From Anaerolineae bacterium (lineage in GTDB: Bacteria; Chloroflexota; Anaerolineae; S140-20): DNA of 64,000 nt. The stretch lies in the NCBI GenBank assembly GCA_027021705.1, contig JALUTT010000002.1, forward strand, positions 11,650-75,649, in the 5' to 3' direction. The notes below the pieces were generated by a model that saw only the letters and a list, made by a program, of their open reading frames with translations, was not told the origin of the DNA and searched no databases. Position 1 is the first letter of the stretch. Each line of letters begins with the position of its first letter. This document shows, piece after piece, positions 1,606 through 30,267 of the stretch. The position numbers were made by a program, and so were the translations under genes.

Positions 1606-1628
1606 AGGACCTCCTTGGAGATGTTGGG

Positions 1629-1742: not shown

Positions 1743-1757
1743 CTTGACGACGTGCCT

Positions 1758-4400: not shown

Positions 4401-4406
4401 CCTCCC

Positions 4407-5834: not shown

Positions 5835-5936
5835 AGGGTCACCTTCCGTCGTCGTGCTCTGGGTGGGACCGGAGGCTCCCCGGTCTGCCGGCGATGCCGT
5901 CCGGCAGGGATGGGGAAGCCAGGTCCGGTCGTCGGG

Positions 5937-6764: not shown

Positions 6765-6771
6765 CCGTCGT

Positions 6772-15536: not shown

Positions 15537-15733
15537 TACGGACTCCCTCCTGAGATCACGGCCACCAGCTTGATCTCGTCGCCCTCTTCCAGACGGGTAT
15601 CCTCGGTGATCAGCTTGCCGTCGCGCACGGGCAGGACCATCTCCGGCGTCAGCCCGACCTTCTCGATGGCTTCTCGAACGGTGATGCCGGCTTCCACTTC
15701 CCACTCCTGATCGCGAAGGGTGATCTTCACCAT
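15536..15733 (-). CDS. Ubiquitin-like sulfur carrier (TtuB/ThiS/MoaD family)
   Basis: 65 aa ending LEEGDEIKLVAVISGGSP; translationally coupled to ttuA (TAATG). Confidence 0.88.
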   Translation of the reverse strand: MVKITLRDQEWEVEAGITVREAIEKVGLTPEMVLPVRDGKLITEDTRLEEGDEIKLVAVISGGSP

Positions 15734-16017
15734 AGCCTCCTCCTTCCCAGGGTTGTGAATCCCGGAGACCGGGTCTTCGGCTGCTGGATTCACGCCCGGA
15801 TTGTACGCGAAAGCGGGGTGAGCGTCAAGGCGCAGGGTGGCCATCGGGGATCGTCGGGAAGGCGTAGGGTATCCGTAGGGAAAGCGTGGGGAGGGCGTTC
15901 AGAAAGAAAATCGGCTTTGTGGTAAAGTACAATCAGCAAGGCGCTCCTTTTCTCCTCCTTTGCATAGAGAGCCGGGTAGGGTGCAGGCCCCCGCCCGGCT
16001 CTCTGTGGTCTGGCGGA

Positions 16018-16056
16018 AAGCAGCCCTCCCGGTCCCTGGGACCGGGAGGGCTGCTT
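16018..16056 (-). terminator. Probable intrinsic terminator of the sqr operon
   Basis: Long GC-rich hairpin AAGCAGCCCTCCCGGTCC / GGACCGGGAGGGCTGCTT downstream of the dsrE-like gene. Confidence 0.65.
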
Positions 16057-16098
16057 GTGTGTATCCCCTCGCTCACGGAGCGTGGATGGAGGGCTAGG

Positions 16099-16605
16099 TT
16101 AGATGAAGATGATCTGGGCGCCTTCGGTCATGTCAATGAAGTCGCTGGCGGTGACGATGCCCTCGACGCCTTCGACGAAGTCGTCCATCGTCAGGCCCAT
16201 CATGTCCACCGTCATCTTGCAGGCGTACAGCTTGGCACCACCATCCACCAGCATCTGCAGGTATTCGCGCACCGGCGGCACGTCCAGGTCCGCGATCTTC
16301 TTCTTCAAGAAAGCGGTGGCGAAGGCGGTCATACCCGGCAGGGCGCCCATCCACTGGGGGATGCCCAGATTGCCGGTGGGCAGACCCATCAGGCTGAACT
16401 TGAAGCTGGTGTTGGCGACCGGGGCGATTTCCAGGTGGTCCACGCGCTTCTTGTTGATGATGTCCAGCCCCCAGAAGGTGAAGAAGATGGTCACGTCCAC
16501 GCCATTGCCCAGGGCGGCCCAACCCATAATCAGGGCCGGCAAGGCCATGTCTAGATCGCCCTTGGAGCAGATGAAGGCGATATGGCGGTTCTTTTCCTCA
16601 GCCAT
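16099..16605 (-). CDS. DsrE/DsrF/DrsH-like (DsrE2-type) sulfurtransferase
   Basis: IFFTFWGLD and LYACKMTVDMMG motifs. Confidence 0.9.
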   Translation of the reverse strand: MAEEKNRHIAFICSKGDLDMALPALIMGWAALGNGVDVTIFFTFWGLDIINKKRVDHLEIAPVANTSFKFSLMGLPTGNLGIPQWMGALPGMTAFATAFLKKKIADLDVPPVREYLQMLVDGGAKLYACKMTVDMMGLTMDDFVEGVEGIVTASDFIDMTEGAQIIFI

Positions 16606-16703
16606 TGTTGCTCTCCTTGATCCTGTGTCGGGAAGACCCCAAGGGTTTCCGGCCGGAGAACCCTTAGGGCCTTCGGCGGCTCCGAGAAGATCCAGGCGTG
16701 CTC

Positions 16704-17021
16704 TTAGACGCAGCCTTGGGGCTTCCCCAGCCCGGCGATGCGGGCGACCTTCTTGGCCGGGCCTTTGGGGAAGAGCTTGAACAGTTCCTTGGTGGGGATG
16801 CCCCCGGCTTTGGTGATCCGCCGCAGGGTTGGCGGTTCCCCCCGCGCCTTGAAGTCGGCCCGGCAGAACTCGATCACCTTCCAGTGGCGGTCGGTCAACT
16901 CCTCGATGCCCTCCTCACGGGCGAGCACTTTGGCGATCTCCGGCGTCCAATCGTCGGGGTTGACCATAAACCCCTCATCGTCGAACTCAATGGGCTTCCC
17001 AGCGATCTCTCGAACAGCCAT
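16704..17021 (-). CDS. tusE: TusE/DsrC family sulfur relay protein (single C-terminal Cys)
   Basis: DDEGF..PDDW, LTDRHWKVI and LFPKGPAKKVARIAGLGKPQGCV motifs. Confidence 0.9.
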   Translation of the reverse strand: MAVREIAGKPIEFDDEGFMVNPDDWTPEIAKVLAREEGIEELTDRHWKVIEFCRADFKARGEPPTLRRITKAGGIPTKELFKLFPKGPAKKVARIAGLGKPQGCV

Positions 17022-17080
17022 AGGTTTTCCTCCTTATTGGCTCTATAGCTTCTTCTGGCTTTATAGCTTACAGCTCTGGA

Positions 17081-17183: not shown

Positions 17184-17924
17184 TCACTTCGCGCTCTCAC
17201 CAACGGAGCGGAGCACGAGCAAGGTCTTGGAAAGTCCTCGCCGGACGGCAGGGTCGTTCAACTGCCGCAAGATGTGCAGCAGCGAGGTATCGGTCGGTTC
17301 CTCGGCCCTGGCCGTGACGGCCACCTGACCCATCATCTGCATGATCTCGGGCTGGGTCATCTCCTTGATGGTCCGCAGGATGAGGACGATGTTGTCGGCC
17401 AGTTGGCGCACATCCTCCTCGGTGAAGGAGGTCACGATCCGATCCACCATCTCCAGACCGCCCTGCAGGAAGACGAAGTACCCCTTCTGCTCCATCTCCT
17501 CCAGGCGGCGCATCAGGGTGAGGAAGACCTCCCGCGTGAGCGGGCTGAGGTCCTGCCACAGGTCCATCAGGCTCTCCAGTTGGTCCAGCATCTGCTCCAG
17601 GTTGCGGGTGTTGCGCAACAACCGCTTGAGGAGGTGGAAGATGTCCTCGATCTGGACGTAGCCTTCGATCTCCTCCAGTTGCTGGACCGAGAGCCGGAAG
17701 ATGTCGTTGAAGATGGGCGTCAGGTCGTCCTTGAGCTCATCCCACTCCTGGCGACGACGGCGCTGCTGGCGGGCTTCCTCGGTCAGAAAGGCGACCTGGG
17801 TGGTCAGGGCATCCAGCTTCTGGTGGATCTCCGCCAGGGCTTGAGCCGGGGGAAGGTCCGCCGCCACGGCCAGAGGGGCTTCTTGGGCTTGCCTGGGGTC
17901 TTGTGCCATCTGCCTTGCCTCCAT
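17184..17924 (-). CDS. DUF1641-like helical protein (common SQR neighbour)
   Basis: C-terminal SLLHILRQLNDPAVRRGL motif; coiled-coil character; SD GGAGG. Confidence 0.8.
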   Translation of the reverse strand: MEARQMAQDPRQAQEAPLAVAADLPPAQALAEIHQKLDALTTQVAFLTEEARQQRRRRQEWDELKDDLTPIFNDIFRLSVQQLEEIEGYVQIEDIFHLLKRLLRNTRNLEQMLDQLESLMDLWQDLSPLTREVFLTLMRRLEEMEQKGYFVFLQGGLEMVDRIVTSFTEEDVRQLADNIVLILRTIKEMTQPEIMQMMGQVAVTARAEEPTDTSLLHILRQLNDPAVRRGLSKTLLVLRSVGESAK

Positions 17925-17935
17925 CGAAGCGCCTC

Positions 17936-19168
17936 CTACATCCACTTGCCGGCCATCGTCATCTGCGCCGGGATGGGCATTTCCTTCCCCTTGAGCAGGA
18001 TGTTCCAGTAGATCCAGCGGAAGAGCATCTTGCCCCAGTGGTTGACCTCCGACTCCTGGAGCAGGGAGAAGGGGCCGATGCCCGGCAGGGGATACTTCCC
18101 CGGCAGGGGCTCCACGTCGTAGTTGAAGTCAATGAGGATGCCCTTGCCAAAGCCCGATTCGATGTAGCAGTTGGCGTGGCCGTCGAAAGCGTGGATCATC
18201 TCCAGGCCGTCAATGTAGCGCAGGAAGTTCTCGACGAAGACCTCCACGGCGAAGTGGGCCACCGAACCGGCCTTCGACGTGGGGAGGTTGGCCGCGTCGC
18301 CCAGGGCGAAGATGTTGTCGAACTGGGTGGAGAGGAAGGTGTGCTTGTCCACCGGCACGTGGTTCAGTTCGTCCCCCAGCCCTGAGCGCTCGATGACGTC
18401 CGCGCCCATATTCACCGGCACGGCGACCAGCAGGTCGTAGGGGATCTCCTGCTCGTCATAAGAGATGAGCAGCTTCTTGTCCGGGTCCACCCGCTCGACG
18501 AAGAACTCGGGCACCACGGAGATGTTCTTCTCCTCCAGGATGTTGCCCAGCAGCTTCGAGGCCCGGGGCTTGGTGAAGGCACCGGGCAAGGGGGTCACCA
18601 GGGTCAGTTCCACCCGATCCCGCATGCCCTGGGTGTAGAAGTACCAGTCGGCCAGCATGATGAACTCCAGGGGGGCGACAGGGCACTTGAAGGGCGTTTC
18701 CATGATCGTGACCACCATACGGCCCCCGGACCAAGTGCGCAGGTGACGGGCCAGAGCCAAGGCTCCCTCGTAGGTGTAGAAGTCGTGGATGGACTTGCGC
18801 CATTCGTGTTCGGCCAGGCCGGGCGTCTCCTCGGGCCGAGGATGGGTGCCAGTGGCGATGATGAGGAAGTCGTAGTTCAGGTAGCGGTTGTCCTTGGCGA
18901 TGCGCACCCGGTTGTGCTCCGGCTCGATCATCTCGATCTTGGAGACGATCATCTCGACGCCCGGTGGGATGAAGTCCCGCTTGGGCTTGATCACGTCGTT
19001 CCGACCGTAGATGCCAAAGGGGATGAAGAGGAAGCCGGGCTGATAGTAATGGGTCTCCTCCTGGTCCACGATGGTGATCTTCCACTCATCGGGGTCCAAG
19101 TGGTGGACCAGTTTGTTGACGACCATCGTTCCGGCCGTCCCGGCTCCAAGGACCAGTAATCGTTTCAT
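17936..19168 (-). CDS. sqr: Sulfide:quinone oxidoreductase (type III-like)
   Basis: GAGTAG, HYYQPG, FKCPVAPLE, GDAA..PTSKAGS, HANCYIE and NHWGK motifs. Confidence 0.88.
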   Translation of the reverse strand: MKRLLVLGAGTAGTMVVNKLVHHLDPDEWKITIVDQEETHYYQPGFLFIPFGIYGRNDVIKPKRDFIPPGVEMIVSKIEMIEPEHNRVRIAKDNRYLNYDFLIIATGTHPRPEETPGLAEHEWRKSIHDFYTYEGALALARHLRTWSGGRMVVTIMETPFKCPVAPLEFIMLADWYFYTQGMRDRVELTLVTPLPGAFTKPRASKLLGNILEEKNISVVPEFFVERVDPDKKLLISYDEQEIPYDLLVAVPVNMGADVIERSGLGDELNHVPVDKHTFLSTQFDNIFALGDAANLPTSKAGSVAHFAVEVFVENFLRYIDGLEMIHAFDGHANCYIESGFGKGILIDFNYDVEPLPGKYPLPGIGPFSLLQESEVNHWGKMLFRWIYWNILLKGKEMPIPAQMTMAGKWM

Positions 19169-19184: not shown

Positions 19185-19949
19185 CTACAGGTTGGTTAGT
19201 TGGGCAATCGTCTTCAGTTTTCCCACCAGGACGCTGCGCTCGGTGGCGATGTGGGAGATGATGTCGGCGATCCGCTGCAGCAGGGAGAGCACCCACGCGC
19301 GCCGGTCCTGCTCCAGATGGTAGACCTCCTCCAGGTGGGGGATCAGGACCTCCGGCGAGACCTCAAAGGTGGCGGCGATGGCCTCGATCTCCTCCTGAGA
19401 CGGGGGCCAGCGGTCGGGGGCGATGCCGCCCACGATGACCATCCCTTTCAGTTCAGAGCCGACGCGTACGAAGGCGCGGGCGCAGAGGAGTCCCAGGTGG
19501 CTCCGGGTGAACTTGGGCTCCAGTTCGACCGTAGCAGCCAGGCCCTGCCATCCCTCGATGCACTTCTGGAGGGCGTTGGTGTGTTGGTTGATGGCGGAGA
19601 AGAGGCCGCACGGATTGCTCAACCGGGTGATGGGGCGGACCTGCATGTCGGTGATGATCAGCATCAGGCCCAGCGCCTCGGCGAAGGTGTCTTGGATCAG
19701 TTGGACGCATTCTAGGGGCAGCAGGGAAGCCAGGTCATCGTCGGCAGGGGGGGAGGGGGTGAGTTGCAACGAGGGTGTTGAGCCGTTCACCTGGGCCTGA
19801 AGCCATTCCTTCACCCGGTCGGCCGGGAAACGCCACAGCCGGCCCACCTTGATGGCCGGAATCTGACCGGCCTCGGCCATCCGGTAGATGGTCGAGCGGT
19901 CCACCTGGAGCAACTCCTGCATATCCTTCGCGGTCAGCATTTCCGCCAT
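19185..19949 (-). CDS. Transcriptional regulator: excisionase-like HTH_17 plus PocR ligand-binding domain
   Basis: LTAKDMQELLQVDRSTIYRMAEAGQIPAIKVGRLWRF followed by LIQDTFAEALG..IITD..SNPCGL. Confidence 0.85.
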   Translation of the reverse strand: MAEMLTAKDMQELLQVDRSTIYRMAEAGQIPAIKVGRLWRFPADRVKEWLQAQVNGSTPSLQLTPSPPADDDLASLLPLECVQLIQDTFAEALGLMLIITDMQVRPITRLSNPCGLFSAINQHTNALQKCIEGWQGLAATVELEPKFTRSHLGLLCARAFVRVGSELKGMVIVGGIAPDRWPPSQEEIEAIAATFEVSPEVLIPHLEEVYHLEQDRRAWVLSLLQRIADIISHIATERSVLVGKLKTIAQLTNL

Positions 19950-20045
19950 ACTGTCCCTCCCCCAGTTATTGTGATAACCGGAACTTTCGCGCTTATTGTA
20001 CCCTGCCTTTTTCTGCACGATAAGTGATATATTGCAGGATTCAAA

Positions 20046-20114
20046 CGTGATAAGTGTCACAATATGCAGAAAAGGAAACAAGATGCAGAATATGCAAAGT
20101 GTGCAGGGCTAGCA
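20046..20114. promoter_or_regulatory. Putative operator: CRP-like palindrome plus 9-bp-periodic nGCA repeats
   Basis: CGTGA-TAAGTG-TCACA at 20046-20061; nGCA at 20084, 20093, 20102 and 20111; same layout at 30196. Confidence 0.65.
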
Positions 20115-20220
20115 TAGATCTGAAGCGTTGGCCGGCGTGGATAACCCTGAGTCAAGACTCCCGAAGTCTGCCAGACCTCAGGAGTCTCCCAACACTTATT
20201 CGCGCTAACGGGCCTTGTGG

Positions 20221-20706
20221 TCAGCCGAGGGAAGGGGTCAAGCGGGCGTCGGGGGGAACCGTCTGGGTGCGGTCTATGACCACCTGGCGGTCAGCATTTT
20301 GCCGCAGCGCCAGGTGGGGCAGGGGGTGGGCGGCAGGACCGGCCTCCACGGTCCCGTCGGGAGCGAAGCGGCTGCCGTGGCAGGGGCAGCGGAACCCCTC
20401 CGGCGTCTGGTCCACCAGGCAGCCCAGATGGGTGCAGACGGCGGAGATGGCGAAGTAGCCGTGCTCGTCCCGGGCCAGGTAGGCCCGGGCCGGCGCGATG
20501 TAGAGGAGGCCGCCGGGGGCGAGGGAGGAAGCGTCCGGAACCGGGACGGGCGGCGGCGCTGGCGTGGTGATGGGCGGGGTGAGGAAACGCCAGAGGGCTC
20601 GCACCGAGCCCAGGAGGGCGAGGACCAGGCTGCCACCCAGCAGCCGGCCCAGGAAGGTCCGGCGGCTCATCCCCTCTCTCGTTCGGGAGGCGTCGTGCTC
20701 GTTCAT
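20221..20706 (-). CDS. Rieske [2Fe-2S] protein with Tat anchor
   Basis: SRRTFL, CTHLGC and CPCHGS motifs. Confidence 0.95.
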   Translation of the reverse strand: MNEHDASRTREGMSRRTFLGRLLGGSLVLALLGSVRALWRFLTPPITTPAPPPVPVPDASSLAPGGLLYIAPARAYLARDEHGYFAISAVCTHLGCLVDQTPEGFRCPCHGSRFAPDGTVEAGPAAHPLPHLALRQNADRQVVIDRTQTVPPDARLTPSLG

Positions 20707-20721
20707 TGGACTTGCGTTCCG

Positions 20722-22179
20722 TTACGGTGGTGACAGGAACGGCTTCAGCGCGTCGTCGCGCGGATAGGCGTGACAGGCGTGGCAGTAACGCGATTCCTGC
20801 TCGTCGGGTTTCTGTTGGCAGGCGCTCCCGTAGACCAGCGGCACCTCCACCTCTTCTCCCGACACCTTGAGGGTCTCCACGAAGCGGCCCGGTGCCACCT
20901 CTCGGACGGCCCACATCTTCTCTCCCCTAGGGGTGACGACCACCCGGTCGCCCACCCGGAGCTTCCCGTGGCCGTTGAGTTGGGCCTGGCGCATCGCCGG
21001 CTCGTCCTCGGCCGTGATGGGGGCCGTCTGAGGGAGCTCCCACAGCGTGCCGTGGCAGGTGCGGCACCGGACCACCTGGCTGTCGGTGACGGCATCGGCG
21101 ATGTGGCCGTTCCCCATCACCTCGTCGCTGGTATGACAGTCTATGCAGTCCAGCTCCCACTCGCAGAGGGTGAACTGGCCGATGGGCTGGTAGTACTCGG
21201 CCAGGCGGCGCTGCTGGCGGGGCAGGAAGTCGGAGAGGGAGGGGCCGGCCGGCGGCAGGTCCGGGCGTGGCGTGAAGGCCATCGTGCGCAGGGAGTAGTT
21301 GCCCCGGTTGTGGCAGTGGTTGCACTGGGAGAAGGGGATGGCGGTGGTCAGGCGGTGCAGCCGGCCGTGGCCGGGCTCGTCCCGAGGGATGGTGGGGTCC
21401 TGGCCCCGGTAGAGGCCGTCGTCGGCGTAGAGGTAGTGGCAGGCGGCACAACCGGTGCTGCGGTAGCGGTAAGGCTGGGGCGTCGCCGGCTCCGACAGGT
21501 GGCAGCCGCCCTCCAGGCAGGATCGACGGAAGCGGGTGTCTATGGGATGTCCGGAAGCGGTGACGCCCTGGGCGGCGAGGGCCGGCATCAGCTCGTCGGG
21601 GGCGGAGACGGGCAGGGGCTTCAGCGCGGCGACGAAGCCGGGCGGTGGGTTCGGGTCCTGGGCAGCCATCACCCCGTAGCGCCCCTCCTGGTCGGGCTGA
21701 GCGCCGAAGGCGTGGCGCACCAGGGCGATGCCGCCGGCGTAGGTGGCCATCAGGCTGCGGCCAACCCGCTCCACCCCATCGCGGCCTGCTTGGCCCGTGT
21801 GGCTGTGGCAGTTGCAGGCCCGGGCCATCGTCGCGAAGCCCGAGGGGTTGCGTCCGCCCACCAGCCCGGCGTGGGCCCGCTCCCGGTCCAGGGCCAGCCC
21901 GTTGCCACCGTGGCAGCTCACGCAGCCGAAGGTCTCCAGGGGATGGCTGGGGCTGATCTCCTCGATGCCCACGTGGCAGGTCGTGCACAGCTCCGGCTGG
22001 CCTGTCCGCGAGGGGGTGATGGACCGGATGCCCAGAGGGATGGGATCGTCGGGATGGGCGGCGTTGTAGCGGCGTTGCCATTGCTGCCACTCGGCCTGCC
22101 CGGTCCGCCACCAGGCGAAGGCCATCGCCAGGAGCAGAAAGAGGGCAGCTCCCACCGTCCACCGGACCGGATGCTTCAC
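20722..22179 (-). CDS. Membrane-anchored multiheme cytochrome c
   Basis: Seven CxxCH motifs (CTTCH, CVSCH, CAACH, CNHCH, CIDCH, CRTCH, CHACH) plus atypical CNCH and CLEGGCH; N-terminal TM helix. Confidence 0.92.
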   Translation of the reverse strand: MKHPVRWTVGAALFLLLAMAFAWWRTGQAEWQQWQRRYNAAHPDDPIPLGIRSITPSRTGQPELCTTCHVGIEEISPSHPLETFGCVSCHGGNGLALDRERAHAGLVGGRNPSGFATMARACNCHSHTGQAGRDGVERVGRSLMATYAGGIALVRHAFGAQPDQEGRYGVMAAQDPNPPPGFVAALKPLPVSAPDELMPALAAQGVTASGHPIDTRFRRSCLEGGCHLSEPATPQPYRYRSTGCAACHYLYADDGLYRGQDPTIPRDEPGHGRLHRLTTAIPFSQCNHCHNRGNYSLRTMAFTPRPDLPPAGPSLSDFLPRQQRRLAEYYQPIGQFTLCEWELDCIDCHTSDEVMGNGHIADAVTDSQVVRCRTCHGTLWELPQTAPITAEDEPAMRQAQLNGHGKLRVGDRVVVTPRGEKMWAVREVAPGRFVETLKVSGEEVEVPLVYGSACQQKPDEQESRYCHACHAYPRDDALKPFLSPP

Positions 22180-23249
22180 GGTATCACCTCCCCCACGGTC
22201 AAGACGATGAGGAGCAGGGCGATGAAGGCGAAGAGGGCCTGCACAGGGCCTCGTCGTCGGTCGAACCAGCGGCCGGCCCGGGCGTGGGGGTCCAGCCAGG
22301 GGATGGCGGCCAGGAGGGTGAGCAAGGCCAGCGGGATGCCCACCCCGGCCCAGAAGGGGGGGAGGTGGCGCAGCAGGCGCTGTACCCAGAGGAAGATCCA
22401 GGGAGCCTGGGCCGTGGGGGGAGGGCGGTCCAGGGAGGCAGAGGCACCTAGAGGGGCCGGGCGGAGGGCTGAGAGCAAGAGGAGCCCACCGGTGATCAGG
22501 AGGGCGGCGATGGTCTCCCGCTGGAAGAGGACTTCCTTGGAGACCATCCGGCGGGGCCGGCCCGCCGGGCGCGGAGGGCGGGAGATGCCGCCGTCCACCC
22601 GCAGCCGGAAGAGGTGGTAGACGATGCCGAAGACGACCGGGAGGGTCAAGCCGATGACGTGCCAGCCGTAGAAGCGGAGCAGGGCCGCCTCCCCGATCTG
22701 CCGGTCGCCCACCAGCACCAGGTAGAGGGACCGGCCCAGATGGGGGATCCGACCGACCAGGTTGGTGCCCACCAGCAGGGCCCAGTGGGCGCCCTCATCC
22801 CAGCGCAACACGTAACCGCTGAAGTCCCAGAGCAGGACGAGGACCAGCAGGCCGAGCCCGATCAGCCAGTTGAGGCGGCGGGGGCGGGCGTAGGCCCCGG
22901 TGAAGACGATGCGGGCCATGTGGAGCGTGACGGCCAGGACGAAGAGCTGGGCGGCCCAGTAGTGGAGCGCCCGGATCAGGCTGCCAAAGGCCACCACGTC
23001 TTCGATCAGGACGATGGAGGCGTGGGCCTCCTCCGGCGTGGGCTGGTAGTAGAGGGTGAGGAAGAGCCCGGTCAGGATGGTGAGGGTGGCGGCCAGGATG
23101 CTGATGCCGCCCAGACCGAAGGTGTAGGTGAGGCGGATGCTCTCGGCCGGGAGGCGGTCCGGGTGCAGGGCGTAGAGGATAGATTGGTGTCTCTGCCAGA
23201 GACGGCGGCGCCGTCGGGTAGAAGTGAGGACGCGCATCATCCTCGTCAT
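22176..23249 (-). CDS. Cytochrome b (bc-complex type)
   Basis: Heme His pairs RALHYW..LHMAR and GWHV..YHLF; SGYVLRWD; real start at MTRMMRV. Confidence 0.9.
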   Translation of the reverse strand: MTRMMRVLTSTRRRRRLWQRHQSILYALHPDRLPAESIRLTYTFGLGGISILAATLTILTGLFLTLYYQPTPEEAHASIVLIEDVVAFGSLIRALHYWAAQLFVLAVTLHMARIVFTGAYARPRRLNWLIGLGLLVLVLLWDFSGYVLRWDEGAHWALLVGTNLVGRIPHLGRSLYLVLVGDRQIGEAALLRFYGWHVIGLTLPVVFGIVYHLFRLRVDGGISRPPRPAGRPRRMVSKEVLFQRETIAALLITGGLLLLSALRPAPLGASASLDRPPPTAQAPWIFLWVQRLLRHLPPFWAGVGIPLALLTLLAAIPWLDPHARAGRWFDRRRGPVQALFAFIALLLIVLTVGEVIP

Positions 23250-23284
23250 CGGATCCCCTCCACAGGCTACCCGAGCCCCTGGGG

Positions 23285-24322
23285 TCAGCGGGCGAAGACG
23301 GGTAGGAAGTGGGAGAGCTGCCCGGCGTAGACGAAGACGTAGCGCAGCAGGAAGCCGCCGATCAGCACCAAGAGGCTGCTGGCCAGGCTCAACTGCCGGC
23401 GGTACTTGATGGCCCCCTCCTTCAGGATGATGGGGAAGAGCTCGTACCCCTCGACGGCCAGGGGGAGCAGCAGGCCCAGCCCGATCACGCCGATCCAGAA
23501 GGGGGCGGTGAAAGGCCCTCCCAGGATCAGCTTGAGCGAGGCGGCCGAGCTCCAGGTGTTCAGCGTCTGGTGCAGGAAGAAGGGGATGATGATGAAGATC
23601 TCCAGCACGATCAGCACGGCGTCCACCGAGACCAGCAGGTGCCGTTCGTGCTCCAGGGCTGCCGGGTCCAGCAGGTCTCCCACCAGGGTGGCGACCAGCA
23701 GGAGGAAGGCCACGCCGGTGGACATAGCCGAGAAGAGGAAGAGCTGGGCGACCATCGGGGTGTTCCAGAAGGGGCGGGCCGGGATAGCTCCCAGGAGGAC
23801 GCCGGTGTACATCCCTACGCCCAGGGAGATGGGAAAGCCGACGGCGGCCAGCACCCCTCGCCCGATGCGCACCGTCCGGGAGGGGATCGGCTGCCAGCGG
23901 GCAGGGGCGAGGAGGTCGCCGACGCGCTGGGGAACCCGGATCAGGTTGCGCAGGGGCCGGGGCAGCCAGAGGACCAGGTAGAGGAGCGAGACGATGACGA
24001 AGAGGGTCAGCAGCCAGCTCCCGATGGACATGGGCGAGGTAAACTGGATGGTGGTGAAGAGCAGCCAGAAGTGCAGAGGGCGTCCCAGGTCGAAGACGAG
24101 CATGGCGAGGCCCAACATCAGGGGCCAGGGGGCCAGCAGGGCTCCCAGCCTGGCGATGCGGCGGTAGCGCCCGCCGCCCAGGTAGGTGGCCAGGCCGGAC
24201 ATGGCGAAGATCCCGGCGCTGATGCCGGCGGTGTAGAGGTAGATGACCACCAGCAGGCCCCATTCGATCGTCGTCGGTGATCCGCTGTAGCCTTGGAGAA
24301 AAGGGTCGTAGGTTGTGGGCAT
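23285..24322 (-). CDS. psrC: NrfD/PsrC family membrane anchor
   Basis: WGLLVVIYLY, DLGRP, SPMSIGSWLL, YTGVLL..RPFWN and GGFLLRY motifs. Confidence 0.92.
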   Translation of the reverse strand: MPTTYDPFLQGYSGSPTTIEWGLLVVIYLYTAGISAGIFAMSGLATYLGGGRYRRIARLGALLAPWPLMLGLAMLVFDLGRPLHFWLLFTTIQFTSPMSIGSWLLTLFVIVSLLYLVLWLPRPLRNLIRVPQRVGDLLAPARWQPIPSRTVRIGRGVLAAVGFPISLGVGMYTGVLLGAIPARPFWNTPMVAQLFLFSAMSTGVAFLLLVATLVGDLLDPAALEHERHLLVSVDAVLIVLEIFIIIPFFLHQTLNTWSSAASLKLILGGPFTAPFWIGVIGLGLLLPLAVEGYELFPIILKEGAIKYRRQLSLASSLLVLIGGFLLRYVFVYAGQLSHFLPVFAR

Positions 24323-24337
24323 CGTGCACCTGCCTCT

Positions 24338-24901
24338 CTAGTCCACGAGGTAGAAGATGGCCGGCCCGGTTCCCGCTTCGGGGTAGAGGGTGTAGTGTTG
24401 GTGGGTGGCGAGCAGCTTGGAGACCTCGCTCTCGGGGTCGTTGAGGTCGCCGAAGTGGCGAGCTCCTCCCACGCAGGTCTCCACGCAGGCCGGAGGCTGC
24501 CCGGCGTCCAGACGGTGCACGCAGAAGGTGCACTTGTCCACCACGCCCCGCTCTTCGTCGAAGTAGCGGGCGTCGTAGGGGCAGGCCTGGATGCAGTAGC
24601 GGCAGCCGATGCACCGGTCGTAGTCAATGAGCACCAGCCCGTCCTCCCGGCGGTAGGTCGCGCCGGTGGGGCAGACCCGCTCGCAGGGCGGGTTGGTGCA
24701 GTGGTGGCAGTTCTCCGGCGCGAAGAAGAGGCTGACGTCGGGATAGCTCCCTTTGGTCTGGTGGGCGATCCAGTTGCGGTGATGTCCGATGGGCACGTTG
24801 TTCTCGACCGAGCAGGCGACCATACAGGCTTCACAGTCTATGCACCGCTTGGGCTCCATCACGAAGACCCAGCGGGGCGTCTTCTTCGTCGTATCCGCCA
24901 T
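24338..24901 (-). CDS. psrB: 4Fe-4S electron-transfer subunit (PsrB/NrfC-like)
   Basis: CIDCEACMVAC, CHHCTNPPCERVCP, CIGCRYCIQACP and KCTFC motifs. Confidence 0.93.
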   Translation of the reverse strand: MADTTKKTPRWVFVMEPKRCIDCEACMVACSVENNVPIGHHRNWIAHQTKGSYPDVSLFFAPENCHHCTNPPCERVCPTGATYRREDGLVLIDYDRCIGCRYCIQACPYDARYFDEERGVVDKCTFCVHRLDAGQPPACVETCVGGARHFGDLNDPESEVSKLLATHQHYTLYPEAGTGPAIFYLVD

Positions 24902-24914
24902 CGTCGTTCACTCC

Positions 24915-27161
24915 CTACGCTTTGGTGACCTTCACCATCGTCTGGCTGAGGGCCTGCGAGCCGGTGATGGGGTCGGTGAAGGTGAGGTGCAGGTCCGAAT
25001 CGCTGGCCCCGGCCCCGTAGGCCGTGCGCAGCCCCTTGCTCAGATGGCCGAAGCCGGGCGTCATGTAGACGCAGTCGGGGCGGATCCGTTCGGTCACGTG
25101 GGCCCGGGTCTTCACCCGACCGGCGGCGCTCTCCACCCACACTTCGTCGCCGTCGGCGATCCCCCGGGCGGCGGCGGCCTTGGGGTGGATCCAGAGGGGG
25201 TTGTCCGGCACCCGCTCGTGGAGCAGCCGGTTGTTGTGGGTGGCGAACTGGGTGTGCTGGGCCACCTTGCCCGTCAGCAGGTAGAACTGGCCTTCAAAGG
25301 GCTCCGGCGGCGCTTCCCAGGTGGGCACGGCGGGAAAGCCGGCGTTGCGCAGCACCTCGCTGGCCAGCTCGATCTTGCCGCTGGGGGTGTTCCAGCTCAG
25401 CGTAGGCTTCCCCTCCGCCTCGGCCGGGGCGGTTTCCGGCAGCCGGTAGAAGCCCCGCTCCTTCAGCTCCTCCAGCGTGATCTCCAGCGGGGCGAGTTGT
25501 TGCCGCAGGTAGTCCTCCTCGTCCTCGTAGGGGAAGTAGTCGCCCAGGCCCAGCCGCTCGCCCAGTTGCTTGAAGATCCACAAGCCCGACCGGCTCTCCC
25601 CCAGAGGCTCGACGGCCGGCTGGCGGATGAAGACGATGCCGTCCACCACCGTCAGTGGGTCGTACCGCTCCAGGTAGCTGGCCTCGGGCAGGACCACGTC
25701 GCTGAACCAGGCGGTGTCGTTCATCGCGATGTCAATGGTGACGATGAACTCCAGCTTGCTGAAGGCTTCCAGTGTCTTGCGACGCTCGGGCAGGGCGTTG
25801 ACCGGGTTCTGGCGGTAGATGAACCAGCCCTTGGCCTGGTAGGGTTCGCCCCGCAGGATGTTGTCGCGGATCTCCTGGAAGACGCCCAGCTTCAGGGGCA
25901 CCAGCGGGTACTTCCAGGGCACGCCGTCCAGCCGCAGGGCGGCCACGCGCGGGTAGGGGGGGTGGGGGAGGGAGGCCAGGCCGGCCCCTTCCTCGCCGGC
26001 GGCCGGCTGGAGGCCGCCGGGCTGCCCCCAGTTGCCCACCAGCGCGTTCAGGATGGCGATGGCCCGCTCCGTCTGGAAGGAGTTGAGGAAGTTGCTGGTG
26101 CGCCAGTTGGGGTGGGCGAAGGCGTGGGGGGCTGCCAGGGCGAACTCGTGGGCGATCCGCCGGATGGTCGAGGCCGGGATCTCCGTCTTGGTGGCGGCCC
26201 ACTCCGGCGTGTAGTCGCGCACCGCCTCCTTGAGCTCGTCGAAGCCCACGGTGTAGGCTTCCACGAAGGCGTGGTCGTAGAGGTCGTTGTAGATGATCTC
26301 GTGGATCAGCGCCAGGTGGAAGGCCAGGTCGGTCCCCGGCTTGATGGGCAGCCATTCCGTGGCCTTGGCTGCCGTCTTGGTGAAGCGGGGGTCCAGCACA
26401 ACGACCTTGGCCCCCCGGGCGATGGCCGCCACCAGCGCCTGGCTCTCCGAGTTGGAGATGGCCTCCAGCAGGTTGCGGCCCGTGTAGATGATGTACTGGG
26501 CAGCGCTGTAGTCGCGGCCCGGCTCCTGCACCCCGTAGGTGAGCAGGTTGGCGACGATCATCGCGTTGAAGCAGAGGGAGCGCTGGGTCCCGTAGTTGGG
26601 CGAGCCGTAGGCTTTCAGCAAGTTCTCGAAAACGGGCTGGAGCAGGTTGTGGGTGGTGCTGAAGATCATCGCCTCGGGGCCGTATTTTTCCTTGATCTCC
26701 AGCATTCGCTCCGCCACGTAGTCCAGGGCTTGCTCCCAGGAGACGCGCTGCCACTTGCCGCTGCCCCGCTCGCCGGCCCGGATCATCGGGTAGAGCAGGC
26801 GGTCGGGGTCGTAGAGGGTGGCCACCCCCGCCTGCCCTCGGGGGCAGAGCATCCCGTTGGAGTGGGGGTGATGGGGGTTGCCGTCCAGCTTGTAGACCTT
26901 CCCGTCCTTGACCTTGGCGACCAGGCCGCAGCGCCAGACGCACTGCTCGCACAAAGAGTAGACCTCGCGGTCGAAGACGACGGGCGGGAGCGGTTTCAGT
27001 CCACCGTCCGGCGAGAGGGACGGCTCCAAGGAGAGGCGGGGGAGCCGCAGCCCCAGCCCCAGGGCGGCCAGGGTCCCGGCGCTCACCCCTAGGAAAGTCC
27101 GCCGGCTGATGGGGCGGTCCAACACCGACGGTTCGGGTGCTTCACGTCCTTTCTTGCTCAT
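24915..27161 (-). CDS. psrA: Polysulfide/thiosulfate reductase-like molybdopterin catalytic subunit
   Basis: Tat motif SRRTFL, FS0 motif CEQCVWRC..LCPRG, Mo ligand region QRSLCF, DVVLPEASYLER. Confidence 0.88.
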   Translation of the reverse strand: MSKKGREAPEPSVLDRPISRRTFLGVSAGTLAALGLGLRLPRLSLEPSLSPDGGLKPLPPVVFDREVYSLCEQCVWRCGLVAKVKDGKVYKLDGNPHHPHSNGMLCPRGQAGVATLYDPDRLLYPMIRAGERGSGKWQRVSWEQALDYVAERMLEIKEKYGPEAMIFSTTHNLLQPVFENLLKAYGSPNYGTQRSLCFNAMIVANLLTYGVQEPGRDYSAAQYIIYTGRNLLEAISNSESQALVAAIARGAKVVVLDPRFTKTAAKATEWLPIKPGTDLAFHLALIHEIIYNDLYDHAFVEAYTVGFDELKEAVRDYTPEWAATKTEIPASTIRRIAHEFALAAPHAFAHPNWRTSNFLNSFQTERAIAILNALVGNWGQPGGLQPAAGEEGAGLASLPHPPYPRVAALRLDGVPWKYPLVPLKLGVFQEIRDNILRGEPYQAKGWFIYRQNPVNALPERRKTLEAFSKLEFIVTIDIAMNDTAWFSDVVLPEASYLERYDPLTVVDGIVFIRQPAVEPLGESRSGLWIFKQLGERLGLGDYFPYEDEEDYLRQQLAPLEITLEELKERGFYRLPETAPAEAEGKPTLSWNTPSGKIELASEVLRNAGFPAVPTWEAPPEPFEGQFYLLTGKVAQHTQFATHNNRLLHERVPDNPLWIHPKAAAARGIADGDEVWVESAAGRVKTRAHVTERIRPDCVYMTPGFGHLSKGLRTAYGAGASDSDLHLTFTDPITGSQALSQTMVKVTKA

Positions 27162-27183
27162 CTCGCGTTTCCCCTTTGGCGTT

Positions 27184-27762
27184 TTACGCTTTCTGTCCTG
27201 TGCTCCCCACCTGGTCGGCCTTCGCCCTGGGGTCGCCCGTCTTGCCCAGGACGTAGAAGAGGATCAGCGTGATCTCCGTGAACAGGATGATCAGCAACCA
27301 GGGGTTGGCGTGGATCAGGTCTGCCAGGACGACGCTACCCAGGTTGGCCAGGGCCGAGATCTTGGGGAAGACCTGCGGGTAGGTCAGGCCGTAGAGGATG
27401 GCCCCGACCAGGAAGCCCAACATCCCGGGGATCAGGTAGTCCAGGTTGCCTTGGCCGCCACCGGCGACGCAGGTTCCCGGTCAGAAGCCCGCCAGGGCCA
27501 TGCCCACGCCGAAGATCAGCCCGCCCACCAGGTTGCCGACGACGTAGGTGGGGGTGATTTTCATCAGTGTGATCACGCCCAGGGCTTGCAGGCCGTAGAG
27601 GCCGATCATCCCCACGACCAGGGCGGACATCATGAACTTGAGCACGGCCAGGTCCGTGAAGCGGAAGACGTTGACGATCTTGGAGTACTTGGTCAGGCCG
27701 GCCTTCTGCAGCAGCCAGCCGAAGCAGAAGCCGAAGATCAGCGCGAGCAGGTAGTCGAGCAT
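27184..27762 (-). CDS. YeeE/YedE family sulfur-compound transporter, probable selenoprotein (in-frame UGA at 27481-27483)
   Basis: The two track ORFs are in frame; read-through gives GMALAGF-U-PGTCVAGGGQGNLDY, with UGA at the conserved GxCPG Cys; a hairpin follows directly. Confidence 0.85.
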
Positions 27763-27772
27763 CGTATTCCCC

Positions 27773-28309
27773 CTAGAACTTGCTGCCGTAGAGGATCATC
27801 GCGGTCACGATGCCGGAGACGAACATACCGGCGATGAAGATGAAGGCGGCGGGAGCCAGGGCGATCCCCCCGGCGATGGCCAGCCCGCTGGTGCAGCCGC
27901 CGGCGATGCCTGCGCCGTACTCCAGGATGATGCCGCCGACGAAGGCGGCCACCCAGCGCTTCCAGCGGCTGGGCCCGAAGACCCGCTTCCACTGGGGGTC
28001 GGGCACCGGGTCCAGTTTGAAGGTGTCGGAGAGCTTGGAGGCGGCGAAGGCCCCGAAGAAGGCACCGACCAGCAGGATCACCTGCCAGGTGATGCCCGGC
28101 GGCATGACGAACTTGAAGTAGAGGTTCTTCTCCACCAGGTCGGGTGCCACCGCCTTCAGGATGAGCCCGCCGATGTTCTCGAAGGAGCCGGAGGCTCCGA
28201 TGGCCTGGTGGCTGAGGGCGACGATGAGGACGGCGACGATCCCCAGGCCGGCCCCCGACCAGATGGGGGACCACTCTTCTTTCCTCAGAGCGCGGATGAT
28301 CGCGTTCAC
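27773..28309 (-). CDS. YeeE/YedE family sulfur-compound transporter
   Basis: GAGIAGGCTSG motif; hydrophobic and Gly-rich. Confidence 0.9.
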   Translation of the reverse strand: MNAIIRALRKEEWSPIWSGAGLGIVAVLIVALSHQAIGASGSFENIGGLILKAVAPDLVEKNLYFKFVMPPGITWQVILLVGAFFGAFAASKLSDTFKLDPVPDPQWKRVFGPSRWKRWVAAFVGGIILEYGAGIAGGCTSGLAIAGGIALAPAAFIFIAGMFVSGIVTAMILYGSKF

Positions 28310-28328
28310 CTTTCCCTCCCTTTCTCTC

Positions 28329-29324
28329 CTATGAGAGCTCCTTGCGCAGCGCCATCAGCAACTCCACCTCCTCAGGGTCCAGGCGGGTGACGGCGGAGAG
28401 CAGGTTCAAATCCAGACGGGAGACCGCTTTGAGCACCTGCGGCCCCAGGGGGCGGTTGCTCAGCAGCCGGGCGATGGCTTCTAAAGTGGCGGGATCGGCC
28501 TCGGCCAGGGTGGCGATGACCTCCGCCAGCGCTGGCGGTTCGGCGGTGGGGGCCGGCTGCCCGGTGGGGTAGGGCCTTACCTCGCCAGGGGATGGGATGG
28601 ACGGGGGCGCAGCGGGGGCACCGGCCAGGGCCGCCTGCATCTCCATCAGCATGTTGGCCCGCCACCAGGCGGCGAGGCGGCTGGGCACCTGCTCGAAGTG
28701 CCACACCAGGCCGAGGAAGACCAGGGCCAGCAGGAGGATGAGGGCGATGAGCACCAGGTTGCTGACGTTGGTCCTGGGCTGTTCGGCGGCCTGGCTCTCG
28801 GCGTAGACCTTGTTCAGGTCAATGATCTCGCCTCCCGACGGGGCGCTCACCGGACCGGCTGCGGCCGGGGCGGCGGGGGCCTCCGAAGAGGGCGCCGAGG
28901 GGGCCGATGGGGCTTCGCCGGCCGGAGGGGCTCCACCGCCGCCGCCGGTGCCCACTTCAACGCCCAGCACGCCGGCGTACTGCTGGGCCAGGTCCATGTA
29001 GTCGTTGGGGTGGCACGACTGACAACTGGCCTGGACGTCGCCCAAGGGGGCGACCAGCCCCTGGTGGGCGGCTTCCTTGTCCGTGGCCTGCACGTCGCCG
29101 GCGTGGCAGAATTCGCAGAAATCGCCGAAGGCGTGGGCCGTGTGCCACTCCCCCTCGTTGTTCACCGGGTCCTGCCCTTGCACCTCGTGGCAGTTCTTGC
29201 AGGAGGAGACCGAGGACCCGCACTGGGCTACTGCCTGTCGCTCGTTCAGCCCCCCCATCAGCACCAGGCTGAGGGCGGCCAGGGCGAGCAGCAGGCCCAC
29301 CCGTATCGGTATGCGACGGTTCAT
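28329..29324 (-). CDS. Triheme cytochrome c with Pro/Ala linker and C-terminal TM helix
   Basis: Signal peptide; CKNCH, CEFCH and CQSCH motifs. Confidence 0.85.
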   Translation of the reverse strand: MNRRIPIRVGLLLALAALSLVLMGGLNERQAVAQCGSSVSSCKNCHEVQGQDPVNNEGEWHTAHAFGDFCEFCHAGDVQATDKEAAHQGLVAPLGDVQASCQSCHPNDYMDLAQQYAGVLGVEVGTGGGGGAPPAGEAPSAPSAPSSEAPAAPAAAGPVSAPSGGEIIDLNKVYAESQAAEQPRTNVSNLVLIALILLLALVFLGLVWHFEQVPSRLAAWWRANMLMEMQAALAGAPAAPPSIPSPGEVRPYPTGQPAPTAEPPALAEVIATLAEADPATLEAIARLLSNRPLGPQVLKAVSRLDLNLLSAVTRLDPEEVELLMALRKELS

Positions 29325-29360
29325 GCTTCCCTCCATCCAACTCCGTGCGATGGGTGACGG

Positions 29361-30092
29361 TTACGATCTTGCCGAAAGGCCACGCTCCGTGGCGAGGTGG
29401 GACATGATGTTGGCGATGCGTTGCAGCAAGGTGAGCACCCAGGCTCGCCGGTCCGCTTCCAGGTGGAAGACCTCCGTCAGGTGGGCGGCCAACGCCTCTG
29501 GGGGAACGTCGAACGTGGTGGCGATCGCCCGGAGGGCCTCGTCGGAGGGGGGCCAGTCGTCGGGGGCAACGCCTCCCAGGAGCACCATGCCCTTCAACTC
29601 GTGGCCAACGCGGATCAAGGCCCGGGCGCAGAGGAGGCCGGAGGTCGTGCGCGTGAACTGCGGCTCCAGGTCAATGATGGTCGCCAGATCGTGCCAGTCC
29701 TGGATGCAGTGGGAGAGGGCGTTGGGGTTCTGGACGATGATCTCCAGGAAGCCGCAGAGGTTGCTGAAGCGGGTGATGGGGTGCCCCTCCAGATCGGTGA
29801 TGACCAGGGTCACGCCCAGCGCCTCGGCGAAGGTGTCCTGGATCAGCTGGACGCACTCCAGAGGCAGCAGGGAGGCCAGGTCGCTCTGGGAGATCAGGGC
29901 ATCGGCGGGAAGGGATGGGGCCGAAGTCTCGACCCGGCTCTGGAGCCACCGCTTGACCAGGTTAGCGGGGAAGCGCCACTGCTTGCCCACTTTGATGGCC
30001 GGGATCTGACCGGCCTCGGCCATCCGATAGATGGTCGAGCGGTCCACCTGGAGCAGCGCTTGCAGGTCCTTGGCGGTCAGCATCTCGTCCAT
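29361..30092 (-). CDS. HTH_17 plus PocR regulator, paralog of 19185-19949
   Basis: Long identical stretches with the first copy (VDRSTIYRMAEAGQIPAIKVG, DLASLLPLECVQLIQDTFAEALG). Confidence 0.85.
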   Translation of the reverse strand: MDEMLTAKDLQALLQVDRSTIYRMAEAGQIPAIKVGKQWRFPANLVKRWLQSRVETSAPSLPADALISQSDLASLLPLECVQLIQDTFAEALGVTLVITDLEGHPITRFSNLCGFLEIIVQNPNALSHCIQDWHDLATIIDLEPQFTRTTSGLLCARALIRVGHELKGMVLLGGVAPDDWPPSDEALRAIATTFDVPPEALAAHLTEVFHLEADRRAWVLTLLQRIANIMSHLATERGLSARS

Positions 30093-30195
30093 AGGCTTCC
30101 TCGTTCCGTGGGTCGAATATGTGAAAGTTTGAACGTGCGTGCCCATCTTAGTCCGTTTCCCCGTCTCCAGCAAGTGACGTATGGCAGCGCCAACA

Positions 30196-30267
30196 GGTGA
30201 CAGACGTCACAATCGGCATTAGGCGCATTGGCTGCAGAAGATGCAATCGAGATATGCGGCATATGCA
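30196..30267. promoter_or_regulatory. Putative operator: CRP-like palindrome plus 9-bp-periodic nGCA repeats
   Basis: GGTGA-CAGACG-TCACA at 30196-30211; nGCA at 30215, 30224, 30233 and 30242, then TGCG/TGCA at 30255 and 30264. Confidence 0.65.

Follow-up and report, generated by a model that had tools for sequence, protein, structure and literature searches.

A Psr/Phs-type molybdoenzyme gene cluster linked to Rieske, cytochrome b and multihaem cytochrome genes in Chloroflexota

Polysulfide and thiosulfate reductases of the Psr/Phs type are textbook respiratory enzymes that need just a quinone pool, and Rieske/cytochrome b complexes oxidise quinol and need an acceptor of higher potential. In Campylobacter jejuni and Wolinella succinogenes, periplasmic molybdenum reductases are reported that depend on a Rieske/cytochrome bc complex (Qcr). 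Alternative complex III (ACIII) and Qrc combine a PsrA-like protein devoid of molybdenum with a PsrB-like protein, an NrfD-type protein and a multihaem cytochrome c. Here, a locus is described in which a Psr/Phs-type enzyme is encoded together with a Rieske protein, a cytochrome b, a multihaem cytochrome c resembling ExtM of Geobacter, a trihaem cytochrome c and a split YeeE channel. The locus lies at positions 20221-30173, on the minus strand, of a 64,000-nt stretch of DNA from an Anaerolineae bacterium (assembly GCA_027021705.1, contig JALUTT010000002.1, positions 11,650 to 75,649). This whole stretch is referred to as the window, its positions are used throughout, and the genome is designated G000.

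Ten minus-strand genes are packed in the locus, with gaps of 24, 19, 10, 22, 13, 15, 35, -4 and 15 nt between them. In the order of transcription they encode a PocR-type regulator, the trihaem cytochrome c, one half of YeeE, the other half of YeeE with a selenocysteine (Sec), PsrA, PsrB, PsrC, a cytochrome b6/subunit IV, the multihaem cytochrome c and the Rieske protein. The initial annotation had described this tight run of ten genes, and it was borne out by the open reading frames and by searches with Pfam and NCBIfam profiles (Table 1).

Two neighbouring units in Chloroflexota genomes

The locus belongs to a respiratory cluster that is conserved in Chloroflexota and made up of two units. 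Unit 1 holds the genes for the trihaem cytochrome c, for the split YeeE in its Sec or Cys form, for PsrA and PsrB and for an anchor that interacts with quinone. Unit 2 contains the ExtM-like multihaem cytochrome and the Rieske protein, in most cases together with a cytochrome b6/subunit IV, and none to two monohaem cytochromes c of class I. The monohaem cytochrome genes, when present, often stand just before the cytochrome b gene, and the Rieske gene is often followed by genes for an FmdE-like protein and a four-domain rhodanese. In three loci (L040, L041 and L075) unit 2 was arranged as Rieske, cytochrome b and multihaem cytochrome instead of cytochrome b, multihaem cytochrome and Rieske.

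Among 8000 candidates scored, 991 proteins were relatives of the multihaem cytochrome at E ≤ 1e-10. The 120 matches listed were unnamed or 'hypothetical' proteins, nearly all from metagenome-assembled genomes of Chloroflexota. A scan with one genome per species gave 159 relatives, from which 80 loci were kept, all labelled Chloroflexota save one Acidobacteriota. The loci were compared by tblastn with the window proteins, and in 37 of the 80 the sequence extends for 9 kb or more to either side of the multihaem gene. Within 10 kb of this gene, 33 of the 37 fully flanked loci had psrA together with psrB, and 33 had the Rieske gene. Both YeeE halves along with the trihaem gene were present in 32, a cytochrome b matching that of the window in 22 and a PsrC of the close type in 12. 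The pair psrAB was absent within 10 kb in four fully flanked loci (L042, L054, L074 and L083). Relative to the multihaem block, the psr block was collinear in 18 of the 33 loci, convergent in 10 and divergent in 5, and the two blocks must therefore be transcribed separately in 15 of them. The two units are neighbours that were kept through rearrangement.

One sample of 401 genomes of the class contained the multihaem gene in 30 genomes and a PsrA orthologue in 27, and all 27 also carried the multihaem gene. The orthologue cut of at least 63% identity was set after the gap in the identities had been seen (the next group reached at most 44%), and three of the 27 are partial hits. In 19 of the 27 genomes the two genes stood on one contig within 10 kb of each other. 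No PsrA orthologue was detected in three of the 30 multihaem genomes (G193, G311 and G341). Since 33 of the 37 loci contain psrAB and 27 of the 27 genomes with a PsrA orthologue contain the multihaem gene, the co-location is far beyond chance. In the searched genomes, this whole clade of Psr/Phs enzymes never occurred without the Rieske protein and the ExtM-like multihaem cytochrome, and usually it had its own cytochrome b as well. The initial annotation had proposed a respiratory super-module. What holds of it, on these same counts, is a conserved unit that includes a YeeE channel and a pair of quinone-interacting membrane proteins, PsrC and cytochrome b. The synteny with psrABC on which the proposal depended recurs in other genomes, although one transcript cannot span both blocks in the 15 rearranged loci.

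The cytochrome b gene was less constant. Neither a cytochrome b matching that of the window nor a psrC of the close type was present within 10 kb in 19 of the 51 loci with psrA and psrB, and in some loci, of Aggregatilineales and others, no cytochrome b stood beside the multihaem-Rieske pair. The idea that the Rieske protein works there without a cytochrome b found no support, since five of five such genomes searched have one to three cytochrome b genes elsewhere. In G080, G279 and G193 a cytochrome b of 40-43% identity does adjoin the multihaem gene.

DNA of the locus was present in the hydrothermal-vent metagenomes of two studies besides the one from which it may come. Literature searches limited to open-access papers and bioRxiv retrieved no paper describing the cluster. 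A protein of Ardenticatena maritima from the membrane fraction, ARMA_0580, has 430 aa, seven CXXCH motifs and an N-terminal transmembrane (TM) helix (PMC5808234), and is a possible orthologue of the multihaem protein.

PsrA of the window matched the PhsA equivalog NF012032 with 620.8 bits (612.4 bits in the genome search), below the cut-off of 694, and PsrA of Thermus thermophilus (2VPW) with 504.9 bits. Cys173 of 2VPW, the molybdenum ligand, and His145 both have conserved counterparts in the alignment, and the position of Arg332 is occupied by Trp with an Arg one position further on. The motif of the [4Fe-4S] cluster FS0 reads C-x2-C-x3-C-x27-C, which together with the Cys ligand and the molybdenum-bis(pyranopterin guanine dinucleotide) (Mo-bisPGD) domains places PsrA in this enzyme class. 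Export by the twin-arginine translocation (Tat) system is predicted from the sequence SRRTFLG; the Pfam model TAT_signal gave a weak score of 16.9 bits, which does not reach its cut-off.

The anchor encoded 3' of psrB varied by lineage and was a PsrC, an NrfD-type protein of 402-406 aa or a dihaem cytochrome b561, the last in 10 loci of the L044 type and three of the L084 type. An anchor was present in every tabulated locus that reaches past psrB. The long NrfD-type anchor scored 263.5 bits with HybB, 246.7 with HmcC and 146.3 with QrcD, and the b561 anchor (FdnI/PhsC-like) 73.3 bits with the FdnI-type formate dehydrogenase gamma subunit; by these scores, both alternative anchors resemble quinone-reducing systems most. 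According to PMC12949373 (section 3.6) and PMC10100899, PsrA, PhsA and SrrA are not separable by phylogeny. As described in PMC12949373, Psr and Phs are told apart by the anchor, an 8-TM cofactor-free PsrC versus a 5-TM dihaem PhsC, with no srrE/D/F genes. The PsrA orthologue group described here occurs with PsrC-type and PhsC/FdnI-type anchors alike, so that the published anchor criterion would split it.

We also noticed a second clade of PsrA-like proteins with 38-44% identity to PsrA of the window, in which seven matches contained one in-frame TGA (G374, G252, G367, G360:C2, G301, G280:C14:224375-226639 and G041). The gene in G280 lies about 10 kb from the cluster. The clade probably represents a selenocysteine-containing Psr-like enzyme.

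Electron flow through the cluster

Based on the gene architecture, we tentatively favour an oxidative chain in series, with confidence somewhat short of even, in which electrons would pass from reduced sulfur over the Psr-type enzyme to menaquinone, and from there over the Rieske/cytochrome b complex and cytochromes c to an oxidase. The Tat-exported Psr/Phs-type enzyme would oxidise reduced sulfur (sulfide or polysulfide) outside the membrane and reduce menaquinone via its own anchor. The dedicated Rieske/cytochrome b complex would re-oxidise the menaquinol by a Q cycle, and the electrons would reach a haem-copper oxidase through the membrane-anchored multihaem and the monohaem cytochromes c. 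Rhodanese and the Sec/Cys YeeE channel would take up the sulfane sulfur that is formed and pass it to relay proteins of the TusE type in the cytoplasm, and the neighbouring type III sulfide:quinone reductase (SQR) would feed the same quinone pool.

As the anchor is kept beside psrB everywhere, the molybdenum enzyme is expected to talk directly to quinone, and the second quinol enzyme is then most simply placed in series with it. The retention of the anchor in all loci that extend past psrB makes this oxidative reading at least as likely as a reductive one. Potentials of -125 to -70 mV for menaquinone, -275 mV for sulfur and -402 mV for thiosulfate are given in PMC12949373. With an obligate pairing in series, and with sulfide/polysulfide at about -275 mV against menaquinone, the Psr-type enzyme would be the input. 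The multihaem protein has two invariant Met residues, M300 and M355, which suggests haems with His/Met ligation, and these residues and the class I cytochromes c appear to point to a high-potential exit. The likeness of two of the three anchor types to quinone-reducing systems agrees with the chain as well. Haem-copper oxidase subunit I was found in 29 of the 30 carrier genomes versus 262 of the 401 in the whole sample, a tally in which the unpublished genome G345 is counted. The nearby genes for SQR, a TusE-like protein and rhodanese form a sulfide context in line with the chain, as do the vent metagenomes mentioned above. For Epsilonproteobacteria, extra psr copies have been suggested in PMC6896113 to work in reverse, as sulfide dehydrogenases. 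If the in-series chain is true, the cluster would hold the first enzyme of the Psr family that serves as an electron-input module, and a route of sulfide-driven respiration would be available to the abundant, mostly uncultured Anaerolineae and Caldilineae.

Several points weigh against this chain. No oxidative Psr is known. Relatedness among the carriers, which come from 12 families, confounds the enrichment of the oxidase. Other cytochrome b genes are present in G000 (on contigs C96 and C3, in one case close to an oxidase gene of C3), so that a dedicated complex is not obviously needed. DsrA and SoxB were not found in G000, which is 94.9% complete, and this leaves no known pathway for further sulfur oxidation. 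The three conserved distal His of the trihaem cytochrome suggest low-potential haems, for which the chain has no clear role. SQR is adjacent in just three loci; besides the window it adjoins the cytochrome b/multihaem block in L025 and L027, where a TusE-like gene is adjacent too. Finally, the biochemically characterised members of the PsrA/PhsA/SrrA lineage are all reductases (PMC10100899 and PMC12949373).

The main rival is flow in the opposite direction, in which tetrathionate, selenite or tellurite would serve as a high-potential chalcogen acceptor and be reduced electrogenically; it is possible but rather unlikely. Electrons would run from menaquinol over the Rieske/cytochrome b complex to the cytochromes (multihaem, monohaem and trihaem) and on to PsrB and PsrA. 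Energy would be conserved by the Q cycle, and YeeE would import what is formed, either thiosulfate or reduced selenium. That PsrA is strictly coupled to the multihaem cytochrome would fit this direction, as would the cytochrome c gene that heads the psr unit in 32 of the 33 fully flanked psrAB loci, the bc-dependent periplasmic molybdenum reductases reported for Campylobacter and Wolinella and the YeeE/TsuA models, named for thiosulfate uptake. Tetrathionate and selenite are thermodynamically within reach of a Rieske centre, the selenite reductase SrrA is of the same lineage, and a Psr homologue of Shewanella sp. ANA-3 reduces tetrathionate, whose E0' is +198 mV (PMC12949373, sections 3.6 and 4.3). 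The multihaem protein is ExtM-like, and the ext cluster of Geobacter, with rhodanese and a Sec-cytochrome, has been linked to selenite/tellurite reduction; as given in PMC5877670, however, only the porin ExtI is tied to it experimentally, not ExtM/O/P/Q, and the ExtP match of the window is unspecific. The anchor 3' of psrB would also make the cytochrome route redundant, and electrons from the Rieske centre would have to climb into low-potential clusters of the PsrB type. If the bc complex did feed the reductase, the outcome would be an energy-conserving respiration of tetrathionate or selenite.

It is improbable that an ordinary menaquinol:polysulfide/thiosulfate reductase (PsrABC/PhsABC) was merely co-inherited with a general-purpose Rieske/cytochrome b complex, with no functional dependence between the two. 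Such an enzyme would account for PsrA being closest to PsrA of T. thermophilus and the PhsA model and for its conserved ligand Cys and His145. It would also agree with the rhodanese in 22 of the 80 loci, as with Sud in Wolinella, and with the separate transcription in 15 of the 33 loci. The linkage in 27 of 27 genomes and 33 of 37 loci across rearrangements and anchor swaps would be left unexplained, however, and other cytochrome b genes exist for general use.

The proposal that the Psr enzyme, the Rieske/cytochrome b-multihaem complex and a haem-linked Sec-YeeE form one machine, coupling quinol oxidation to sulfur or selenium chemistry in an undescribed way, is regarded as quite improbable. 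One version would be bifurcation at the Qo site; another would be redox-cycling of the channel motif U/C-x3-C by the trihaem cytochrome, by which chalcogen transport would become a redox step. An electron-bifurcating supercomplex is very improbable. Its Qo site would send one electron uphill in potential to the multihaem and monohaem cytochromes and the oxidase and use the other, of low potential, to drive an endergonic reduction of thiosulfate or polysulfide by PsrAB. In its favour, the step from menaquinol to thiosulfate or sulfur is uphill at the potentials given above (PMC12949373), a reductase of the low-potential type is obligately paired with a Rieske/cytochrome b complex, and 29 of the 30 carriers have the oxidase. 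Against it, the sequences show no apparent wiring by which the haems of cytochrome b would reach PsrB, and the established topology of the families puts PsrAB at the outer face and haem bH on the side of the cytoplasm. In addition, the 19 psrAB loci mentioned above have neither a cytochrome b matching that of the window nor a close psrC within 10 kb; in five genomes of this type, cytochrome b genes were found elsewhere.

The in-series oxidative chain is the reading tentatively favoured here, and whichever way the electrons run, the cluster gives a starting point for finding out what Rieske/cytochrome b complexes of the Ext type do.

Proteins and signals of the locus

The cytochrome b has the four haem-ligand His residues as H96/H110 (x13) and H197/H212 (x14, b6-like). 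In an alignment of 24 sequences, H96, H110, H197, P283 and W284 were invariant and H212 nearly so. At the place of a PEWY-type Qo motif the family has A-P-W-[FI]-F, a correspondence judged by eye. The Rieske protein contains both cluster-binding boxes (CTHLGC-x16-CPCHGS), and its best NCBIfam match was the b6f iron-sulfur subunit (67.6 bits). Eight haem motifs were counted in the multihaem protein of the window, for which '7+' had been noted before, and nine in most homologues. Residues 122-125 read CxCH (C-N-C-H) in the lineage of the window and CxxxxCH or CxxxCH in 20 of 20 other aligned homologues, and the ninth haem may be lost or unusually bound in the window protein. Two invariant Cys, C339 and C454, lie outside the haem motifs.

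The multihaem protein matched the NCBIfam model ExtM with 159.7 bits (E 8.7e-47, cut-off 800) over model positions 15-391 of 599. ExtM was the only NCBIfam family matched by all 21 members of the multihaem family, in each case far below the cut-off. The cytochrome b scored 225 bits with ExtP (cut-off 290) and 42 bits with ExtQ (cut-off 150), and among its orthologues ExtP was the best match in 24 of 24 and ExtQ was matched in 23 of 24, again all below the cut-offs; none of these proteins thus falls within the ExtM, ExtP or ExtQ equivalogs. A specifically ExtP-like nature of the cytochrome b was rejected, as an unrelated paralogue on contig C96 of the same genome scored higher (269.6 bits), and the ExtP match is therefore generic. 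Of the resemblance to the Geobacter ext cluster that the initial annotation had pointed to, the part concerning the multihaem protein holds, with ExtM alone, and the part concerning the cytochrome b is not supported. The C96 paralogue (L008, 4320-5999) is a 559-aa fusion of a cytochrome b and a dihaem cytochrome c of class I, and no Rieske protein resembling that of the window was found on C96 (8.7 kb) by tblastn. Contig C22 of G000 (L007, 1139-10327) carries a second module with an ExtM-like multihaem cytochrome of 871 aa (232 bits), a TPR protein, a Tat-exported molybdenum enzyme of 830 aa, an iron-sulfur subunit and an NrfD-type protein of 473 aa, and adjoins genes for giant DUF11/LPXTG surface proteins.

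YeeE is split, and the gene for the C-terminal half precedes the one for the N-terminal half, an order kept in all 49 loci with both halves. The C-terminal half bears the motif GGCTSG with a Cys. The frame of the N-terminal half is open save for one TGA at 27481-27483, in the context AGF-U-PGTC. Across 49 orthologues this column contained TGA in 21 and TGC/TGT (Cys) in 28. In G000, tRNA-Sec was found on contig C27 and SelB with 303.7 bits (cut-off 242). Judged from the aligned Cys codons and this machinery, the TGA is a real selenocysteine codon, and the Sec-YeeE pair recognised at first sight was thereby confirmed. A hairpin resembling a selenocysteine insertion sequence (SECIS) follows the codon. 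Most of the 21 orthologues with TGA have it too, and its stem shows compensatory changes in L029, L031 and L034. Its mean energy did not differ between the TGA group (-18.7 kcal/mol) and the Cys group (-17.7 kcal/mol), and the hairpin is the weakest of the three lines of evidence for Sec.

The trihaem cytochrome consists of a signal peptide, a domain of about 100 aa with the three CxxCH motifs, a low-complexity linker, one TM helix and a cytoplasmic tail. Its three conserved distal His were seen in an alignment of 24 orthologues. No Pfam family was matched, and the nearest clusters in the protein atlas were unnamed Chloroflexota proteins. An invariant Cys35 stands directly after the predicted A-x-A cleavage site, giving a mature N-terminus Q-C-G. 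This residue and C339 and C454 of the multihaem protein are candidate ligands of His/Cys haems, as in sulfur-cycle cytochromes.

Table 1. Features of the locus and its surroundings, with window positions, all on the minus strand.
Feature	Position	Evidence and properties
Regulator 1, HTH_17 (excisionase/MerR-like) with PocR sensor domain	29361-30173 (-)	Pfam PocR 83.8 bits, HTH_17 55 bits
Trihaem cytochrome c	28329-29336 (-)	3 CxxCH at residues 46, 74 and 105; TM-like segments 9-27 and 194-212
YeeE/YedE, C-terminal half of single-chain YeeE	27773-28309 (-)	Sulf_transp 63.3 bits, profile positions 169-309 of 310
YeeE/YedE, N-terminal half, selenoprotein	27184-27762 (-)	Sulf_transp 72.5 bits, profile positions 9-155
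SECIS-like hairpin	27441-27480 (-)	Apical stem GUCGCC-GGU-GGCGGC; begins 15 nt past UGA; fold -19.9 kcal/mol
psrA, Mo-bisPGD subunit of PsrA/PhsA/SrrA lineage	24915-27161 (-)	Pfam Molybdopterin 175.8 bits, Molydop_binding, Molybdop_Fe4S4
psrB, PsrB-type four-cluster ferredoxin	24338-24901 (-)	Fer4_11 109.6 bits; 16 Cys; best NCBIfam TtrB, DsrO
psrC, NrfD-type quinone-interacting membrane subunit	23285-24322 (-)	Pfam NrfD 181.5 bits; about 8 TM helices
Cytochrome b6 fused to subunit IV, 357 aa	22176-23249 (-)	Pfam Cytochrome_B 131.7 bits, Cytochrom_B_C
Multihaem cytochrome c, ExtM-like, membrane-anchored, 485 aa	20722-22179 (-)	7 CxxCH and 1 CxxxxCH; N-terminal TM 5-23
Rieske [2Fe-2S] protein, b6f/bc type	20221-20706 (-)	Pfam Rieske 41 bits; Tat-like N-terminal anchor
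Strong hairpin	20154-20190 (-)	In the 139-nt gap 3' of the Rieske gene; gap folds at -48.6 kcal/mol; stem about 16 bp
Regulator 2, paralogue of regulator 1 (PocR and HTH_17)	19185-20081 (-)	Pfam; 65% identity to regulator 1
Type III SQR	17936-19168 (-)	NCBIfam NF049943 644.2 bits, cut-off 525
DUF1641 protein	17184-17945 (-)	Pfam DUF1641
TusE/DsrC-family sulfur-relay protein	16704-17033 (-)	Pfam DsrC, TIGR03342 90.5 bits; single C-terminal Cys, ...GKPQGCV

Regulator 1 starts with TTG at 30173, and an alternative ATG stands at 30092, where the run had been taken to end before. The upstream regions of both PocR-type regulators (20082-20110 and 30174-30260, minus strand) have the motif TTGCATAT-N-C-N-GCAT in common, which may be an operator or promoter element. 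The terminator scan gave no site with a stem of more than 5 bp inside the ten-gene run, and a terminator-like 13-bp stem with a T-tract was located just upstream of it (30931-30903). The strong hairpin 3' of the Rieske gene was not called by the scan because a T-tract is absent; it possibly marks the end of the operon or acts as an RNA-stability element. A sigma-70 promoter scan of the locus was uninformative, with two sites versus 1.3 expected.

The cluster is followed on the same strand by the genes for regulator 2, SQR, the DUF1641 protein and the TusE/DsrC-like protein. The SQR is the Cys form (H-A-N-C, HANC at residue 331) of a model named 'selenoprotein subtype'. A sulfur-relay set lies 3' of SQR (14568-17033), in which the TusE/DsrC-like gene is joined by those of a ThiS-family protein (15536-15898) and a TtuA-like PP-loop enzyme (14568-15824). 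Further away, at 691-6791 of the window, a set of the xanthine dehydrogenase family (MoCoBD large subunit, fused FAD/2Fe-2S subunit and XdhC) adjoins a lipoyl synthase-like radical SAM gene.

Comparison with described systems

The cluster shares with PsrABC of T. thermophilus (2VPW-2VPZ) and W. succinogenes and with PhsABC of Salmonella the Tat-exported Mo-bisPGD enzyme with a Cys ligand, the four-cluster PsrB and the NrfD-type PsrC. These model operons are without a Rieske protein, a multihaem or trihaem cytochrome and a split YeeE, whereas all of these are linked in the cluster described here.

The Qcr systems of Campylobacter and Wolinella are a precedent for a menaquinol:cytochrome c reductase that serves periplasmic Mo-bisPGD enzymes. 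The reductases concerned (Nap, Tor and Nos) have no anchor of their own for quinol oxidation, and their genes are not known to be tied to the bc genes in a single cluster.

In Geobacter sulfurreducens, extHIJKLMNOPQS encodes the multihaem cytochrome ExtM, the Rieske protein ExtO, the cytochrome b ExtP, ExtQ, the rhodanese ExtH and the Sec-cytochrome ExtKL. Shared with it are the Rieske protein, an ExtM-like multihaem cytochrome that stands in for c1/f and a cytochrome b of the b6 type, whose subunit IV is either fused or separate; rhodanese and a selenoprotein are encoded in the neighbourhood. The present cluster differs in being without the porin ExtI, ExtKL, ExtN and ExtS, and no Psr-type enzyme is among the Geobacter ext genes as listed in PMC5877670.

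Both YeeE halves have the Sulf_transp fold of the YeeE/TsuA thiosulfate transporter, although they fall outside the TsuA and YeeE equivalogs: against cut-offs of 400 and 645 bits, the N-terminal half scored 50.5 and 27.7 and the C-terminal half 23.2 and 20.8. Unlike single-chain YeeE, the channel is encoded by two genes in which the C-terminal half comes first. The YeeE/YedE family is already among the predicted selenoproteins in PMC13188914 and PMC9312934, and Sec at a conserved channel Cys is a shared property. The motif listed for the family in the review PMC13188914 is GUxSG, whereas the Sec motif here is G-[FY]-U-P-G-T-C and GGCTSG lies, with Cys, in the other half. The cluster thus adds a new Sec position to the YeeE channel family.

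With ACIII and Qrc, the cluster has in common an NrfD/four-cluster module wired to c-type cytochromes on the outer face, and its long NrfD-type anchor matches HmcC and QrcD; ActB of this group is mentioned in PMC10100899. It differs from them in that PsrA of the window keeps the Cys aligned with the molybdenum ligand and the full cofactor domains, and in that the Rieske/cytochrome b complex is additional.

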